A stretch of DNA of 59,560 nucleotides from an uncultured Mycoplasmatota bacterium. Lineage in GTDB: Bacteria > Bacillota_I > Bacilli_A > RF39 > UBA660. Location: NCBI GenBank assembly GCA_900546745.1, contig URDT01000004.1:1-59560 (forward strand), read 5' to 3'. A program made the translations under genes and the position numbers. Positions within the stretch are counted from its first letter, which is position 1, and every line of letters begins with the position of its first letter. Shown here piece after piece: positions 15,377 through 59,560 of the stretch. The notes beneath the pieces were generated by a model that saw only the letters and a list, made by a program, of their open reading frames with translations, ran no database searches and was not told the origin of the DNA.

Positions 15377-16372
15377 TTAGATATTATCAATTAAATTTAT
15401 ATTATCTAACATCACCCCTGCTCCAACGGCAACACATGTAAGAGGACTATCAGCTATCTTTACTGGAACTTTTAATTCATGAGCAAGTAGCTTGTCCAGT
15501 CCCTTTATTAATGCCCCTCCACCAGTTAGTGTTATTCCTCGGTCTACAATATCAGCAGACAACTCTGGAGGAGTTTGTTCCAAAACTGCTTTTGCTGTAT
15601 GGACAATGATCATAGAACTTTCTCGTAATGCTTCTTCAATTTCATTGCTGGTTAATGTTATTGTATTTGGTAAACCACTTACCAAATCTCTTCCTCTTAC
15701 AACCATTTTTTCAGGATTTTTTTTATCTAAAAAAACATTTCCTATCTTTAATTTAATTTCTTCAGCTGTTCGATCTCCAATTAACAATTTGTATTTATTT
15801 TTTATGTATTTCATAATATCACTATCAAAGGTATTACCGGCAACCTTAATTGATGAACTTGTTACAATTCCTCCTAATGAAAGAATAGCAATATCTGTTG
15901 TTCCTCCACCAATATCAATAATCATATTTCCACAAGGAGCTGATATATCTAACCCTGCTCCAACGGCTGCTACTTTTGGTTCTTCTTCAATGAATACCTT
16001 TTTTGCCCCTGTCCTTTCAGCTGCTTCTTTAATGGCATTTTTTTCTACCTGTGTTATATTGGAAGGACAGCATATCAAAATTCTAGGTTTTGAAAAAAAA
16101 CTTTTTCCTCCTGCTTTTTTTATAAAATGATCTAACATGATTTCTGTTGTTTCAAAATCTGCGATAACACCATCTTTCATTGGCCTTATTGCAGTTACTT
16201 TGCCAGGTGTCCTACCCAACATATCACGTGCTTCAGAACCTACAGCCAAAGCTTTTTTAGAATATGAATCTATTGCGACAACGCTAGGTTCATTTAAAAC
16301 TACACCTTGTCCTTTAATATAAATTAATACATTAGCTGTTCCTAAATCAATTCCAATATCTTGTGCAAACAT
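15377..16372 (-). CDS. mreB: rod-shape-determining actin homologue MreB/Mbl
   Basis: 331 aa. DIGIDLGTANVLIY, IIDIGGGTTDIA and LTGGGALIKGLDKLL motifs. It sits next to spoIIID, as mbl does in Bacillus. Confidence 0.92.
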   Translation of the reverse strand: MFAQDIGIDLGTANVLIYIKGQGVVLNEPSVVAIDSYSKKALAVGSEARDMLGRTPGKVTAIRPMKDGVIADFETTEIMLDHFIKKAGGKSFFSKPRILICCPSNITQVEKNAIKEAAERTGAKKVFIEEEPKVAAVGAGLDISAPCGNMIIDIGGGTTDIAILSLGGIVTSSSIKVAGNTFDSDIMKYIKNKYKLLIGDRTAEEIKLKIGNVFLDKKNPEKMVVRGRDLVSGLPNTITLTSNEIEEALRESSMIIVHTAKAVLEQTPPELSADIVDRGITLTGGGALIKGLDKLLAHELKVPVKIADSPLTCVAVGAGVMLDNINLIDNI

Positions 16373-41346: not shown

Positions 41347-42999
41347 CTATACATTTTTATCAATTTTGAATGTAACTTCGTAGCTATCTTCTAAATCAAT
41401 TTCTTCTGTTTCGATTTTAAAGCCATATTTTTCAATTGTTGCTGCACAATCTCTAATTGTATTAATTACAGTTTTCATATCAGCAGTGACAAAACGTTGA
41501 TTAGTTTGTGGTATAGGTACTTCTATATCGCCATTTTCATCGAATTTGACATTCTTATTTACAGAAAAGTTATCCATAACTTTTTCACTAGCATTCATAT
41601 TAGTAAAACTATCATCATCTGTTAAATTTAATGGTTCTATTGGCTTAGAAAAATCTACTAAATTAGAATCGAAACCATCATTATTGTTAGACACTACATT
41701 ATTTTCCACAGATATAGGTTTTGGTGTAGGATAAATAGATTCTTCTGGTGTCGAATCATCAGTTACTTGATTATTATAGTTTTCCACAGGTTGTTGTTGA
41801 AAACTATTAAATGAGTCATTCATTTGTTCATTTTTTGGTTCTTCCTTAACTGATGGTTGGGCAAATAAAGAATCTGTTCCAAAAATATTTGATGGATTTG
41901 ATATTGGTTCTCCAAAATCCATATTTACTTGTTTATCTTCTATATCTTCAACATAATTTGGATTCGTTTCTGAATTATTTATTCCAAACATATTAAAGAA
42001 TTTTCCACCCGTTACGGGAACTGTTTCTTCCTCTTTCTGCTCTGGTTGTTGTTCTACTTGCGACATAATATCTACAGGTTGTTCTGTTGGTTTTAATAAT
42101 TCATTTATATCGGCTGGTTCAGCTGGTTCTTTTACGATATCTGTAGCTTCTTTTTCAATTTTATCAATATCCATAAAGCCAGGATTAACATCTGAATTGT
42201 AGTTTTCCACAGGTTGTTGTGGAATATTTGTTTTTTGTTCTGGTTCTTCGTCTTCAAAAACAAATGAAGGTTGATTATTTTCTATAATGGGCTCTGTTGG
42301 AATATTAAATTCTTTTATTGTATCATCATTCATTGTCATTTCTCCCTTAGTTATTTCTTTTGCTTCATTATCTGATGTTGAATTATCAGATGAAGTACTA
42401 TTTAATAACTTTTCTATTTCTTCATCTGTCTTTCTAACAGTCATTCTTTCATTCATAATTCTATTTAACATTAATATTTGTTGATCATTATTTAATTTTA
42501 ATAATGATCTAGCATGTCTTTCTGAAATTTTGTTTTCCATCAAAGCTACCTGTACTTCATCATACAAATTCAAAAGTCTTAATTTATTAGCTATTGTTGA
42601 TTGCTTTTTACCTAGTTTTTCACCCAATGCCTCTTGACTAATATATCCCATATCCAAAATCTTTTTATACGAGATAGCTTCTTCTATTGGTGTTAAATCT
42701 TGACGTTGGACGTTTTCTATTAAAGCTACTTCAGCACTATTTTTATCATCTAGTGATGTAATAATTGCAGGAATTGTTGTTTTTCCCGCTAATATACTAG
42801 CTTTATATCTTCTCTCACCAGCTATAATTTCATATTTATCACTGATTTTTCTTACAACAATTGGCTGAATTACACCATGCAATTTAATAGATTCGGCAAG
42901 TTCATTAATTGCTTGTTCATTAAATTTAATTCTAGGTTGGAATCTATTTGGTAAAATATCATCAATGTTTAAAATTTGAATTTGTTTTTCCATTTCCAT
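41347..42999 (-). CDS. noc: Noc-type ParB-family protein with a low-complexity insertion of about 300 aa
   Basis: ParB N-terminal domain (PNRFQPR, GERRYKAS). The HTH region LGKKQSTIANKLRLLNL...ISERHARSLL and the C-terminus TADMKTVINTIRDCAATIEKYGFKIETEEIDLEDSYEVTFKI match Bacillus Noc rather than Spo0J. Located directly after rsmG. ATG at 42997..42999 behind AAGGAGG. Confidence 0.8.
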   Translation of the reverse strand: MEMEKQIQILNIDDILPNRFQPRIKFNEQAINELAESIKLHGVIQPIVVRKISDKYEIIAGERRYKASILAGKTTIPAIITSLDDKNSAEVALIENVQRQDLTPIEEAISYKKILDMGYISQEALGEKLGKKQSTIANKLRLLNLYDEVQVALMENKISERHARSLLKLNNDQQILMLNRIMNERMTVRKTDEEIEKLLNSTSSDNSTSDNEAKEITKGEMTMNDDTIKEFNIPTEPIIENNQPSFVFEDEEPEQKTNIPQQPVENYNSDVNPGFMDIDKIEKEATDIVKEPAEPADINELLKPTEQPVDIMSQVEQQPEQKEEETVPVTGGKFFNMFGINNSETNPNYVEDIEDKQVNMDFGEPISNPSNIFGTDSLFAQPSVKEEPKNEQMNDSFNSFQQQPVENYNNQVTDDSTPEESIYPTPKPISVENNVVSNNNDGFDSNLVDFSKPIEPLNLTDDDSFTNMNASEKVMDNFSVNKNVKFDENGDIEVPIPQTNQRFVTADMKTVINTIRDCAATIEKYGFKIETEEIDLEDSYEVTFKIDKNV

Positions 43000-43037
43000 A
43001 AAAACGCCCTCCTTTATTCTTAAATATACTATACTAT

Positions 43038-43072
43038 ATTTTGGGAAATAATTCAATATTTTTGGGAAATAA
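43038..43072. repeat. two direct copies of TTGGGAAATAA (NBS half-site GGGAAAT/ATTTCCC) in the noc promoter region
   Basis: tattttgggaaataa at 43037..43051 and tatttttgggaaataa at 43057..43072. The GGGAAAT cores are at 43043..43049 and 43064..43070, 21 bp apart. Confidence 0.4.
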
Positions 43073-43081
43073 AAAAAAGAA

Positions 43082-50111: not shown

Positions 50112-50508
50112 AGCTATACCTCCTTTTTTATATAAATTCGCATTTGCTTTATCAATTATATATATATTTGTTGGATTTGTCAAATATTTTTTCTTTCCAC
50201 AGTTATTTTTAATAAAAAACATTCTCCACATTATAAAACTATTTTATTTTTCTTTATAATATATGAAAAATTTTATTTTTTACACATTTCCACTGAAAAA
50301 AAATTATTGTATTTCACAATGTGCATAATTAATATTAACTTATTCCACAAATTATGTTAATTTCTATTATTTTTATTGTATTTCAATGTTTTTTTTGTGG
50401 AAAAATACTGTTAATAATACTTTTTTTACGATTTTTCCACTTTTTTCTTTGTTTTTCTATAAAAATAATGTAGAATATAGGTGAATATTTGAGCAGGAGG
50501 TGTATCAT
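50112..50508. other. oriC, dnaA-upstream DnaA-box cluster
   Basis: 9-mers related to TTATCCACA: CTTTCCACA 50194..50202, TTCTCCACA 50222..50230, (T)TATTCCACA 50341..50349, TGTGGAAAA 50396..50404 (inverted) and TTTTCCACT 50433..50441. It lies between rpmH and dnaA at the point where gene orientation flips. Confidence 0.7.
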
Positions 50509-56835: not shown

Positions 56836-59295
56836 ATGGATAGAATAATAGAAAAAAATATAGTACAAGAAGTAAAAGATTCCTTCTTAGAATATTCAAT
56901 GAGTGTAATCGTTTCTCGTGCTATTCCAGATTTAAGAGATGGATTAAAGCCAGTTCATCGTAGGATTTTATATTCAATGTATGAATCTGGGTATACTTCT
57001 GATAAACCACACCGTAAAAGTGCTAGAATTGTCGGAGATGTTATGGGAAAATATCATCCCCATGGAGATTCATCTATTTATGATGCAATGGTTCGTATGG
57101 CTCAACCATTTAGTTTTAGACATACATTAGTTGATGGTCATGGCAATTTTGGTAATATGGATGGGGACGGAGCAGCCGCAATGCGTTATACGGAAGCTCG
57201 ACTTTCTAAATTGTCTTTAGAAATGGTAAGAGATATTAATAAAGATACGGTTGATTTTGATAATAATTTTGATGAAACCGAGAAGGAGCCAACAATTTTG
57301 CCTTCTAGATTTCCTAATATTTTAGTAAATGGATCAATGGGAATTGCAGTTGGTATGGCGACTAATATTCCTCCACATAATTTAGGAGAAGTTATTGATG
57401 GATGTGTTGCTTATATCGACAATCCAGATATTGATACATTAGAATTAATGCAACATATTAAAGGTCCAGATTTTCCAACAGGAGGCATTATTTTAGGAAA
57501 TAGTGGAATTAAAAAGGCTTATGAAACTGGAAGAGGAAGTATTACTATTCGTGGAAGAGTAGAAATTGAAGAAAATAATGGCAAAAGTAGAATTATAGTT
57601 ACAGAACTTCCATATCAAGTAAACAAAAAAGAGTTTCAAGAACGTATAGGTCAATTGGTTAGAGAAAAAATTCTTGACGGAATAAGTGATTTACATGAAG
57701 AATCTAACTTAGAAAATCCTGTTCGAGTTGTAATTTATTTGAAAAAGGATGCAAATGCAAATGTTGTATTAAATAATTTATATAAGCATACTCAATTACA
57801 AATAACATATGGTATTAATTTATTGATGATTGATCAAAAGACTCCTAGAATTTTATCTTTAAAGGAAATTATTTCAAAATATATTGATTATCAAAAAGAA
57901 ATTATTATTAGAAGAACTAGATTTGATTTAAATAAGTGTGAAGCTAGGGTACATATTTTAGAAGGATTAAAAATAGCTTTAGATAATATTGATGAAGTAA
58001 TAAAAATTATAAAATCTTCTAAGACTGATGATATTGCAAAAGAACAATTAATGTCTAAATTTGCTTTAGATGTAATCCAATGTGAAGCAATATTAGAAAT
58101 GAAATTAAGAAGATTAACTGGTCTAGAAAAAGATAAAATAGAAAATGAATTAAAAGATTTATTACAACGTATTGAAGAATTGAAATCTATTTTGGCTTCT
58201 GAACAAAAAGTTCTAGATATTATCAAGCAAGAATTAATTGAAATTAAAAATAAATATGCTGATGATAGAAGAACAAATATTGACATGACTGCTATTGATT
58301 ATATTGAAGATGAATCTTTAATTCCAGTAGAAGATATCATTATAACACTTACAAATAATGGTTATATTAAACGTGTAAATAGTGAAAATTATAAATCACA
58401 AAATCGTGGTGGAGTTGGAATTAAAGGAATGGCAACAAATGAAGAAGATTTTGTTAAAAACATGATATCAATGACGACTCATGATTATATATTATTCTTT
58501 ACAAATAAAGGAAAAGTATATCGAATGAAAGGATATGAAGTTCCTTTATATAATAGACAATCCAAAGGATTACCAATTATTAATTTAATTCCAATTGATA
58601 AAAATGAAATTGTTACTGCAATGATTAGCATTTCAAATCAAGATAAAAACAGATATATGGTATTTTGTACACAAAATGGTTTAATTAAACGTACAGATAT
58701 TAGTGAGTTTGATAACATAAGAAATAATGGAAAATTAGCTATTACATTAAAAGAAGATGATAATTTAATTTCAGTAAAGAAAACAGATGGAAATAATGAA
58801 ATTTTAATTGCATCTTCTAACGGAAGAATGATACGTTTTGATGAATCTGAAATTAGAATAATGGGTAGAACTGCTTCTGGTGTAAAAGGAATTGATGTTG
58901 GTGATGGAATATGTGTTGGTTGTGAAATATCAGATCAAGAAAAACAAATTTTAGTTGTTACTGAAAATGGTTATGGTAAACAAACATTTATTGATGAATA
59001 TAGACTAACACATCGTGGTAGTAAGGGTGTCAAAGCCTTAAATGTAACTGATAAAAATGGTATGATGGTTGCTTTAAAATGTATTGATGTTGAAGATAAT
59101 TATGATGTTATGATTATTACCAATAGTGGTATTATTATGAAAATGCCTTTGGAACAAATTTCAACATTAAAACGTGCTACTCAAGGTGTTAGATTAATTA
59201 ATTTAAAAGATGATCAAAAAGTATCAACTGTTGCAGTTGTGGAAAAAGAAAATTTGACAGAATATAATGAAAGTGAATTATTTCCTGGGAAATAA
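56836..59295 (+). CDS. gyrA: DNA gyrase subunit A
   Basis: [19 protein letters not shown]-like N-terminus, [17 protein letters not shown] (QRDR), [10 protein letters not shown] (active-site Tyr) and a C-terminal beta-pinwheel with a GyrA-box-like [10 protein letters not shown]. Confidence 0.97.
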
Positions 59296-59374
59296 TTAAG
59301 AGTAAATATAGTATTGTTTGGGAAATATTTCTTGTGGAAATTTTATTTATACAAATAAAAAAAATAGGCAGATT

Positions 59375-59388
59375 ATTTCCCGGGAAAT
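59375..59388. promoter_or_regulatory. perfect Noc-binding-site (NBS) palindrome ATTTCCCGGGAAAT
   Basis: Exact match to the 14-bp B. subtilis NBS consensus, embedded in a 20-bp perfect palindrome ATTATTTCCCGGGAAATAAT (59372..59391). It may also serve as the gyrA terminator hairpin. Confidence 0.7.
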
Positions 59389-59477
59389 AATATTTATAGT
59401 TATTTTGTAAGAAAATTTAGAAAAGGATAGAAAAACTTAAGTAATGTATTATGTTATAATCGGAGATAAAGTTTTTA

Positions 59478-59493
59478 TGTTTCACGTGAAACA
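59478..59493. promoter_or_regulatory. parS centromere-like site TGTTTCACGTGAAACA
   Basis: Perfect 16-bp match to the Firmicute parS consensus TGTTNCACGTGAAACA. The palindrome extends to 18 bp (59477..59494). Confidence 0.85.
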
Positions 59494-59545: not shown

Positions 59546-59560
59546 TGTTTCACGTGAAAC
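59546..59560. promoter_or_regulatory. second parS site (last base cut by the window end)
   Basis: TGTTTCACGTGAAAC at 59546..59560, identical to the first copy 68 bp upstream, including the flanking A at 59545. Confidence 0.8.

Follow-up and report, generated by a model that had tools for sequence, protein, structure and literature searches.

A long-linker Noc-clade protein, predicted to lack the N-terminal membrane helix, and its origin-proximal binding sites in an uncultured gut Bacilli lineage

The noc gene and its place in the Noc clade

The DNA analyzed in this study (hereafter the window) is a stretch of 59,560 nucleotides from an uncultured Mycoplasmatota bacterium (assembly GCA_900546745.1, contig URDT01000004.1, referred to as C4). 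The source genome belongs to an uncultured gut Bacilli lineage and has 1.31 Mb with 26.8% G+C, in a 92%-complete assembly of 74 contigs; other contigs of the same genome are called C28, C5, C44, and C3. The window contains a single ParB-family gene, noc, lying directly after rsmG. Both its position and its uniqueness agree with an earlier note on this DNA, which had described the product as an orthologue of Noc, the nucleoid occlusion protein, with a disordered insertion of about 300 residues and no N-terminal membrane-targeting helix. At the level of sequence, our analysis showed that the product is a Noc-clade ParB-family protein with intact cytidine triphosphate (CTP)-binding boxes, and that its recognition helix and C-terminal domain are both of the Noc type. 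The coordinates of all features are collected in Table 1.

Direct reading of the sequence bore out the proposed start at ATG 42999 behind an AAGGAGG ribosome-binding site (RBS). Further upstream, an in-frame TTG at 43056 is the first triplet of the -35 hexamer TTGAAT of a promoter-like site, and this -35/-10 architecture is kept in the related loci L006-L022 from metagenome-assembled genomes (MAGs). A start at this TTG, which would add MNYFPKYSIVYLRIKEGVF, was rejected because it has no RBS and overlaps the conserved -35 hexamer; the apparent conservation of the upstream peptide in locus L008 arises because the promoter DNA itself is conserved. The 19 residues that could be added do not form an amphipathic helix, so that an upstream start supplying a membrane helix, which the earlier note had named as a ground for giving up its view, was not found.

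Pfam searches recognized the ParB N-terminal domain and the helix-turn-helix DNA-binding domain, and detected no domain between the end of the latter (residue 199) and the C-terminus. The N-terminal domain carries the boxes PNRFQPR, GERRYKAS, and ENVQRQ, which are the ParB-type boxes I-III (PNRFQPR, GERR, ENxQR) expected of a Noc protein, and the box residues are invariant across an alignment of 76 sequences. By BLASTP, residues 2-203 align to residues 33-236 of Mesobacillus Noc with 53% identity, and residues 497-549 to its residues 239-291 (E 5e-7). The C-terminal ~50 residues also match positions 204-255 of the NCBIfam model nucleoid_noc (E 5.9e-6), and their fold is predicted with confidence. 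The profile, the BLASTP alignment, and the predicted fold all indicate a Noc-type C-terminal domain, as had been proposed for the last ~49 residues.

A maximum-likelihood tree was built from the N-terminal and helix-turn-helix core of 89 proteins, including this protein, the Spo0J of the same genome, 62 relatives from uncultured Bacilli, and Noc and Spo0J pairs from Bacillaceae and Paenibacillus. The results showed that ParB is split from the short and long Noc forms together (support 100/97), and that all long-form Noc proteins fall into one group (support 100/89) beside the short Bacillaceae Noc. A grouping with canonical ParB/Spo0J, another outcome that by the earlier note would have told against its view, was not obtained. 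The closest solved structures by sequence are Geobacillus Noc (7ng0/7nfu, 200 bits) and B. subtilis Noc (7ol9, 174 bits), while the best ParB reached 160 bits. The nucleoid_noc model (TIGR04285) gave 288 bits for this protein versus 243 for the Spo0J of the same genome, and the parB_part model gave 173 versus 210 bits; the nucleoid_noc match is split in two by the insertion, covering residues 6-230 and the last ~50.

Elsewhere in the genome a single further gene with a ParB domain was found, on contig C5. It encodes a canonical Spo0J, which reads GKSRSHITN...SMGHAR and carries the LGRGL peptide. The parS-type residues R173/G201 and an N-terminal LG(K/R)GL ParA-interaction-type peptide are both present in this Spo0J and absent from the protein studied here. 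The soj gene is split over two contig ends (C44:6126-6680 and C5:1-1107), and the soj-spo0J pair follows tilS-ftsH, not noc. In the sub-clade of this genome noc is followed by uvrB, while noc followed by soj, as in Bacillus, was seen in 19 of 60 relative loci, which belong to one sub-clade. Placement with Noc in the tree, a separate Spo0J in the genome, and a gene directly after rsmG, three features by which Noc was recognized here, were all present.

The recognition region reads LGKKQSTIANKLRLLNL...ENKISERHARSLL, as given correctly in the earlier note. Its residues Q133, K139, N144, and R161 correspond to positions 173, 179, 184, and 201 of Caulobacter ParB. Whether the Noc-binding site (NBS) or parS is chosen depends on these four positions, at which Caulobacter ParB has R-T-A-G and Noc has Q-K-K-R; the bases are contacted by Q173 and R201, and one lysine at 179 or 184 is enough for binding (Jalal et al. 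2020, PMC7383237). A four-position alignment upheld the proposal of Noc-like specificity at Q133, K139, and R161 but not at N144, which is not a lysine; the protein matches at three of the four positions and keeps the one lysine that suffices for NBS specificity (PMC7383237). Hardly any of the 76 family members depart from Q, K, and R at these three positions, and position 184 is a lysine only in Bacillaceae and one MAG. A 603-residue long-linker Noc from a rabbit-gut MAG (L009:2205-4013) reads GKTRSTIANK...ISEGHAR, with the ParB-like Arg and Gly at the switching positions, and may represent a reversion towards parS binding. From the tree, the structure scores, the second ParB, and the NBS sites described below, the protein is very probably a Noc orthologue that binds NBS, in line with what had been claimed for it.

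NBS sites beside parS near the origin

A pattern search of the whole 1.31 Mb found two perfect 16-bp NBS (TATTTCCCGGGAAATA) and one site with a single mismatch, whereas by our own arithmetic fewer than 0.001 perfect sites would be expected by chance from the base composition. The genome therefore contains cognate NBS. One perfect site (C28:6581-6596) lies inside rsmI, over the codons TGT ATT TCC CGG GAA ATA in the conserved CISREISK stretch of RsmI, and it uses rare codons, since CGG makes up 0.4% of the Arg codons and TCC 4.4% of the Ser codons in the genome. A sister species, with a Noc of 70% identity, has this perfect site over the same codons (L090:15608), and five further related MAG loci have NBS near noc as well. 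Because the sites exceed chance, the rare-codon rsmI site is conserved across species, and the relatives have NBS near noc, comparison of these sequences indicates that the NBS target is maintained by selection.

With dnaA starting at 50500 and gyrA ending at 59295, the two NBS sites of the window (59279 and 59374) lie ~9 kb from dnaA, the one with a mismatch covering the end of gyrA, and two parS follow. Between the two NBS sites, positions 59316-59345 (tgtttGGGAAATATTTCttgtGGAAATttt) hold an everted pair of NBS half-sites and a further partial half-site. At the start of contig C28 are a gyrA 3' remnant and three perfect parS, followed by tadA-dnaX-ybaB-recR-holB, housekeeping genes that are single-copy in the genome. 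When the neighborhood of the sister species was walked over 40 kb, we found directly behind gyrA a 446-bp stretch with five parS, beyond which come tadA-dnaX and the remaining genes in an unchanged order; this places C28 after C4. All three NBS and all parS found thus lie on one side of the replication origin oriC, within roughly 9-25 kb. Many chromosome-wide NBS, as expected of Noc, were not found in the 92%-complete, 74-contig assembly, which holds ~3 sites, all on C4 and C28.

The gyrA remnant on C28 (positions 1-130, 41 codons) shares 64% identity with the end of the intact gyrA (window 59146-59295). It resembles the gyrA end of the sister species, whereas the intact gyrA end differs and its last codons form the NBS-like site. 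Judged from these alignments, there appears to have been an insertion or duplication at the 3' end of gyrA.

NBS half-sites were also seen at the noc promoter, where TATTTCCC motifs flank the -35 hexamer on both sides. In the region 43028-43075, TATTTCCCAAAA occurs twice, corresponding exactly to one half of NBS (promoter half-site TATTTCCCAAAATA), once upstream of the -35 and once between the -35 and the -10. This layout is kept upstream of noc in ~12 related MAGs (L006-L022), and a full or everted NBS stands at the noc promoter in some relatives (L016, L037, and L012), suggesting autoregulation or a loading site. Genome-wide, TATTTCCC half-sites are not enriched (33 found versus 41 expected), and single half-sites are uninformative at this scale.

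The N-terminus and the acidic linker

Model Noc binds the membrane by means of an N-terminal amphipathic helix of 10 residues, which is needed for function; it is weak alone and needs multimerization on DNA, R7E and F9E abolish membrane binding, and the helix was present in all Noc homologues examined by Adams et al. (Adams 2015, PMC4331003). In apo-Noc the membrane helix (alpha1) and alpha2 pack on the N-terminal domain, and CTP-driven clamp closure is thought to free the helix (Jalal 2021, PMC8429893). The Bacillaceae Noc proteins that we examined all begin with MKxSFSRFFGLGEK and have 35-47 residues before PNRFQPR, versus 16 here, and residue 5 of this protein aligns to residue 26 of Geobacillus Noc (7nfu). 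The alignment and the analysis of the start revealed no N-terminal membrane helix in this protein, nor was one found in the relatives from uncultured Bacilli, all 62 of which have 14-21 residues before PNRFQPR. The absence of the N-terminal amphipathic helix noticed earlier is almost certainly real on this evidence, and the protein, which begins where the engineered truncation NocNΔ26 begins, is its natural counterpart, lacking by alignment both the membrane helix alpha1 and the autoinhibitory helix alpha2.

The insertion comprises 293 residues, query residues 203-497 standing against a 2-residue gap in Mesobacillus Noc (BLASTP), and it sits exactly at the junction of the DNA-binding and C-terminal domains, because the two BLASTP blocks meet there. 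The linker (298 amino acids) has 64 Asp and Glu versus 19 Lys and Arg, with 19% Asn and Gln and 9% Pro; the BLASTP gap and the composition thus agree with the earlier reading of an acidic, Q/N/P/E-rich insertion of ~300 residues. AlphaFold2, run with a 76-sequence alignment, gave residues 1-204 and 505-550 a predicted local distance difference test score (pLDDT) above 90 and most of residues 205-480 a score below 50, so that the insertion is predicted to be disordered. More than 120 homologues of 513-606 amino acids match over the whole length with 47-99% identity. An assembly artefact, which would have undone the earlier claim, was rejected because 99% identical proteins and full-length homologues of 50-70% identity occur in many independent assemblies. 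Across the clade, linker lengths of 67 to 387 residues occur, and the net charge is negative in 69 of 69 proteins.

Four conserved motifs were found in the linker (Table 1). Motif A (NPGFMDIDKIEKEATDIVK), which is found across the clade, has the consensus NPGFMDxDKIxxxAxDI, with P273, F275, M276, D277, I281, and A285 invariant in 22 homologues, and residues 278-284 are predicted as a helix (AlphaFold2 pLDDT 64-76). Motif B (consensus GGKFFNMFNF), the most hydrophobic 8-mer of the linker, is carried by 158 of 180 unique long-form proteins. Its profile is G 82%, K/R 98%, F 100%, F/I 98%, N 80%, M/F 87%, and F 75%, and distant sub-clades have variants such as NKFFNFLEDE and GKFINYGEIE. The PLNLTDDDSF motif has the consensus PFxLTDDxxF. 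The conserved linker motifs, chiefly G-K-F-F-N-M-F, are new here.

The 21-nt internal repeat pointed out in the earlier note is real, and lies within a longer repeat (41773-41801 and 42196-42224) with 27 of 29 bases identical. The QQPVEN peptide is kept at both places in close relatives, which suggests, from the sequences compared, a recent duplication, gene conversion, or a genus-level motif.

Table 1. Features of the noc gene, its product and the gyrA-proximal site cluster in the window
Feature	Position	Strand	Details and basis
noc gene, long-linker form	41347..42999	-	550 codons plus stop; open reading frame list and translation; nucleoid_noc is the best NCBIfam family, 288 bits
C-terminal dimerization-type domain, residues 503-550	41350..41493	-	one helix and two strands; AlphaFold2 pLDDT 88-96
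Acidic disordered linker, residues 205-502	41494..42387	-	net charge -45; AlphaFold2 pLDDT mostly <50; composition; BLASTP
Motif PLNLTDDDSF, residues 456-465	41605..41634	-	L459, D461 and F465 invariant in 22 homologues
21-nt exact repeat, copy 1	41777..41797		encodes QQPVENY; repeat search, family D3
Motif VNMDFGEP, residues 358-365	41905..41928	-	N359 and F362 invariant in 22 homologues
Motif B, GGKFFNMFGIN, residues 331-341	41977..42009	-	candidate relocated membrane or partner contact
Motif A, residues 272-290	42130..42186	-	only predicted linker helix
21-nt exact repeat, copy 2	42200..42220		repeat search, family D3
ParB helix-turn-helix DNA-binding domain, residues 100-199	42403..42702	-	Pfam PF17762 HTH_ParB, E 8e-30
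Specificity positions	42517..42603	-	Q133 (42601-42603), K139 (42583-42585), N144 (42568-42570), R161 (42517-42519); alignment block
ParB N-terminal CTP-binding domain, residues 6-98	42706..42984	-	Pfam PF02195 ParB_N, E 8e-33
RBS AAGGAGG	43008..43014	-	8 nt ahead of ATG 42999; direct sequence reading
Promoter-like site	43028..43056	-	-35 TTGAAT, 17-nt spacer, -10 TATAGT; consensus scan
NBS-like palindrome TATTTCCTGGGAAATA	59279..59294		1 mismatch; over the last codons and stop of gyrA; pattern search, direct reading
Perfect 16-bp NBS TATTTCCCGGGAAATA	59374..59389		one of two perfect copies in 1.31 Mb; pattern search
Perfect parS TGTTTCACGTGAAACA	59478..59493		pattern search, direct reading
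Second parS, cut by the contig end	59546..59560		14-mer core match at 59547

How the long-linker Noc may contact the envelope

The best explanation that we can offer for these observations, one we hold tentatively and at somewhat under an even chance, is a helix-less, long-linker Noc with origin-proximal loading and an envelope contact borne by the linker. We infer that Noc would load at the origin-proximal NBS and close into a CTP clamp, which would then spread locally and give a Noc-DNA complex confined to the origin region. Without alpha1 and alpha2, an N-terminal amphipathic helix released by CTP would not be usable; the envelope contact would come instead from the 300-residue acidic linker, most likely through the G-K-F-F-N-M-F of motif B (331-341). 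A single copy of motif B would be weak, so that many clamps sharing one DNA would be needed for attachment. The net result would be a flexible origin-to-membrane tether that keeps the division ring off the origin-bearing cell halves.

The contact through motif B is favored because the basic-Phe-Phe core of the Bacillus Noc helix recurs in this motif, which also resembles the tail of the organism's own FtsA. Its core [KR]-F-F-[GN]-[LM] matches the R7-F8-F9-G-L core of the Bacillaceae helix. The FtsA protein of this genome (above the TIGR01174 cut-off) ends in ...SMLGKVFGYFFSE and shares with motif B a Gly-Lys and clustered Phe, with acidic residues after them; unlike the FtsA tail, motif B is internal and has a lower helical amphipathicity, and its membrane binding is putative. 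The amphipathic helices of MinD and SepF are comparable membrane-targeting elements. Long forms never carry the N-terminal helix, and short forms never carry the linker or motif B, which is the pattern expected if the membrane contact had moved. Taken together, these sequence features make motif B a possible direct membrane contact in a new place, a proposal that in our judgment falls a little short of an even bet.

Several points weigh against this reading. AlphaFold2 gives motif B no helix (pLDDT 42-50), and its helical hydrophobic moment is 0.23-0.31, versus 0.45-0.56 for the organism's own FtsA tail and 0.40-0.62 for Bacillaceae Noc. In a hydrophobic-moment scan of the linker, the top windows were motif A and other acidic stretches, and motif B was only moderate; the search for amphipathic helices in the insertion, which the earlier note had proposed, neither proved nor excluded a membrane helix. 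The Gly at position -1 and the Asn at +3 of motif B are ~80% conserved, and a specific protein-docking peptide would account for this as well; the strongly acidic chain around motif B should be repelled by anionic lipids; and 22 of 180 family members are without a clear motif B. The number of NBS comes from a 74-contig, 92%-complete assembly, and sites may be missing.

These points lead to the alternative that survives best, namely that the linker motifs (A, B, VNMDFGEP, and LTDDxxF) bind proteins such as FtsZ, FtsA, SepF, Soj, SMC, or DnaA and make no lipid contact. It shares the Noc identity and the loading at origin NBS, and division control or origin positioning would result from recruiting or sequestering a partner. 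Several separate conserved motifs in one disordered chain are typical of multi-partner scaffolds, and motif A is a short acidic helix without membrane character; the strong conservation of Gly and Asn in motif B, its low helical moment, and its lack of a predicted helix point the same way. On the other side, motif B keeps the basic-Phe-Phe core essential to membrane binding of Bacillus Noc and resembles the membrane tail of the organism's own FtsA. We consider this alternative rather unlikely, although it is the one to be taken most seriously.

An alternative that we judge improbable is that nucleoid occlusion has been given up, so that the protein would act as a second origin-organizing clamp or a regulator of replication initiation, with the linker mainly as a spacer that enlarges the clamp lumen or separates Noc and ParB complexes at the interleaved NBS/parS array. 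The ~3 NBS, all beside parS and oriC, are consistent with such a role, as are the net negative charge of 69 of 69 linkers whatever their sequence and the conserved half-NBS motifs in the gene's own promoter, which suggest regulatory binding. There is also the precedent of S. aureus Noc, which restrains DnaA-dependent initiation (PMC5540599). A pure spacer, however, would not need conserved aromatic motifs, and the variation of linker length from 67 to 387 residues across the clade implies that no fixed lumen size has been selected.

The last alternative, a plain parS-binding partition protein of the ParB/Spo0J type with only a superficial likeness to Noc, can draw on the Asn at position 184, on a nucleoid_noc score (288.1 bits) below the curated NCBIfam cut-off of 315, and on the ParB-like R and G at positions 173 and 201 of clade member L009, but it has hardly any chance of being right and canonical ParB identity was rejected, given the tree separation from ParB, the canonical Spo0J with Soj elsewhere in the genome, the Q and R at both switching positions, and the perfect NBS sites kept against codon bias.

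Turning back to the helix-less Noc with a linker-borne envelope contact, its likenesses and differences can be stated against known systems. Noc (YyaA) of B. subtilis, Geobacillus thermoleovorans, and S. aureus (TIGR04285; PDB 7NFU, 7NG0, 7OL9, and 6Y93) belongs to the same clade and has its gene at the same place after rsmG. The present protein is like model Noc in its 53% identity over the CTP- and DNA-binding domains, its Q/K/R residues, its homologous C-terminal domain, the same 16-bp NBS palindrome in the genome, and the additional presence of Soj-Spo0J. It is unlike model Noc in being without alpha1 and alpha2, in its 293 extra acidic disordered residues with short motifs, in the N instead of K at position 184, and in its ~3 NBS, all origin-proximal. 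With ParB/Spo0J it shares the fold, the CTP-clamp boxes, and a centromere-like layout of sites beside parS near oriC; it differs in having Q and R for R and G, in having no LG(K/R)GL peptide, and in coexisting with a separate Spo0J. In sporulating B. subtilis, RacA-DivIVA bridges the origin region to the pole and is unrelated in sequence. RicO of S. aureus is a recent precedent for an origin-to-membrane anchor, with the same proposed outcome, an origin-proximal site-specific binder bridging origin to membrane; its sequence is unrelated, its amphipathic helix is C-terminal, and it is no CTP clamp (bioRxiv 10.64898/2026.03.06.710092). No description of a helix-less or long-linker Noc was found in the literature searched.

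In B. subtilis, NBS sites are scattered round the chromosome (PMC8429893, PMC4331003). A Noc complex confined to the origin would shield the origin-bearing halves and leave the terminus region free, which would carry the B. subtilis logic to an extreme. FtsA and FtsZ (contig C3) and MreB (window 15377-16372) are encoded in the genome, each scoring over its curated cut-off. Soj was the only open reading frame seen with a ParA/MinD-type deviant Walker A motif, and no Min system was detected in the 92%-complete genome. A broader proposal, which we think unlikely, is that in Noc of this clade the anchor has moved from the CTP-gated N-terminus into an acidic tether and the sites have collapsed beside oriC/parS, giving a constitutive, avidity-driven tether between origin and membrane. 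If this is true, the protein would exclude the division ring from the origin-bearing halves, possibly replacing the undetected Min system, and would not be a chromosome-wide occlusion factor.

The widespread long-linker form is a large natural family without the helix and its autoinhibitory partner, in which the clamp, the NBS specificity, and the NBS sites are nevertheless retained. The family thus offers a natural test of whether CTP gating of membrane binding is essential, of whether a membrane or partner contact can work from inside the clamp linker, and of what a 300-residue linker does to a ParB-type clamp. It further suggests how the division site is placed in gut bacteria that have small genomes and no detectable Min system.

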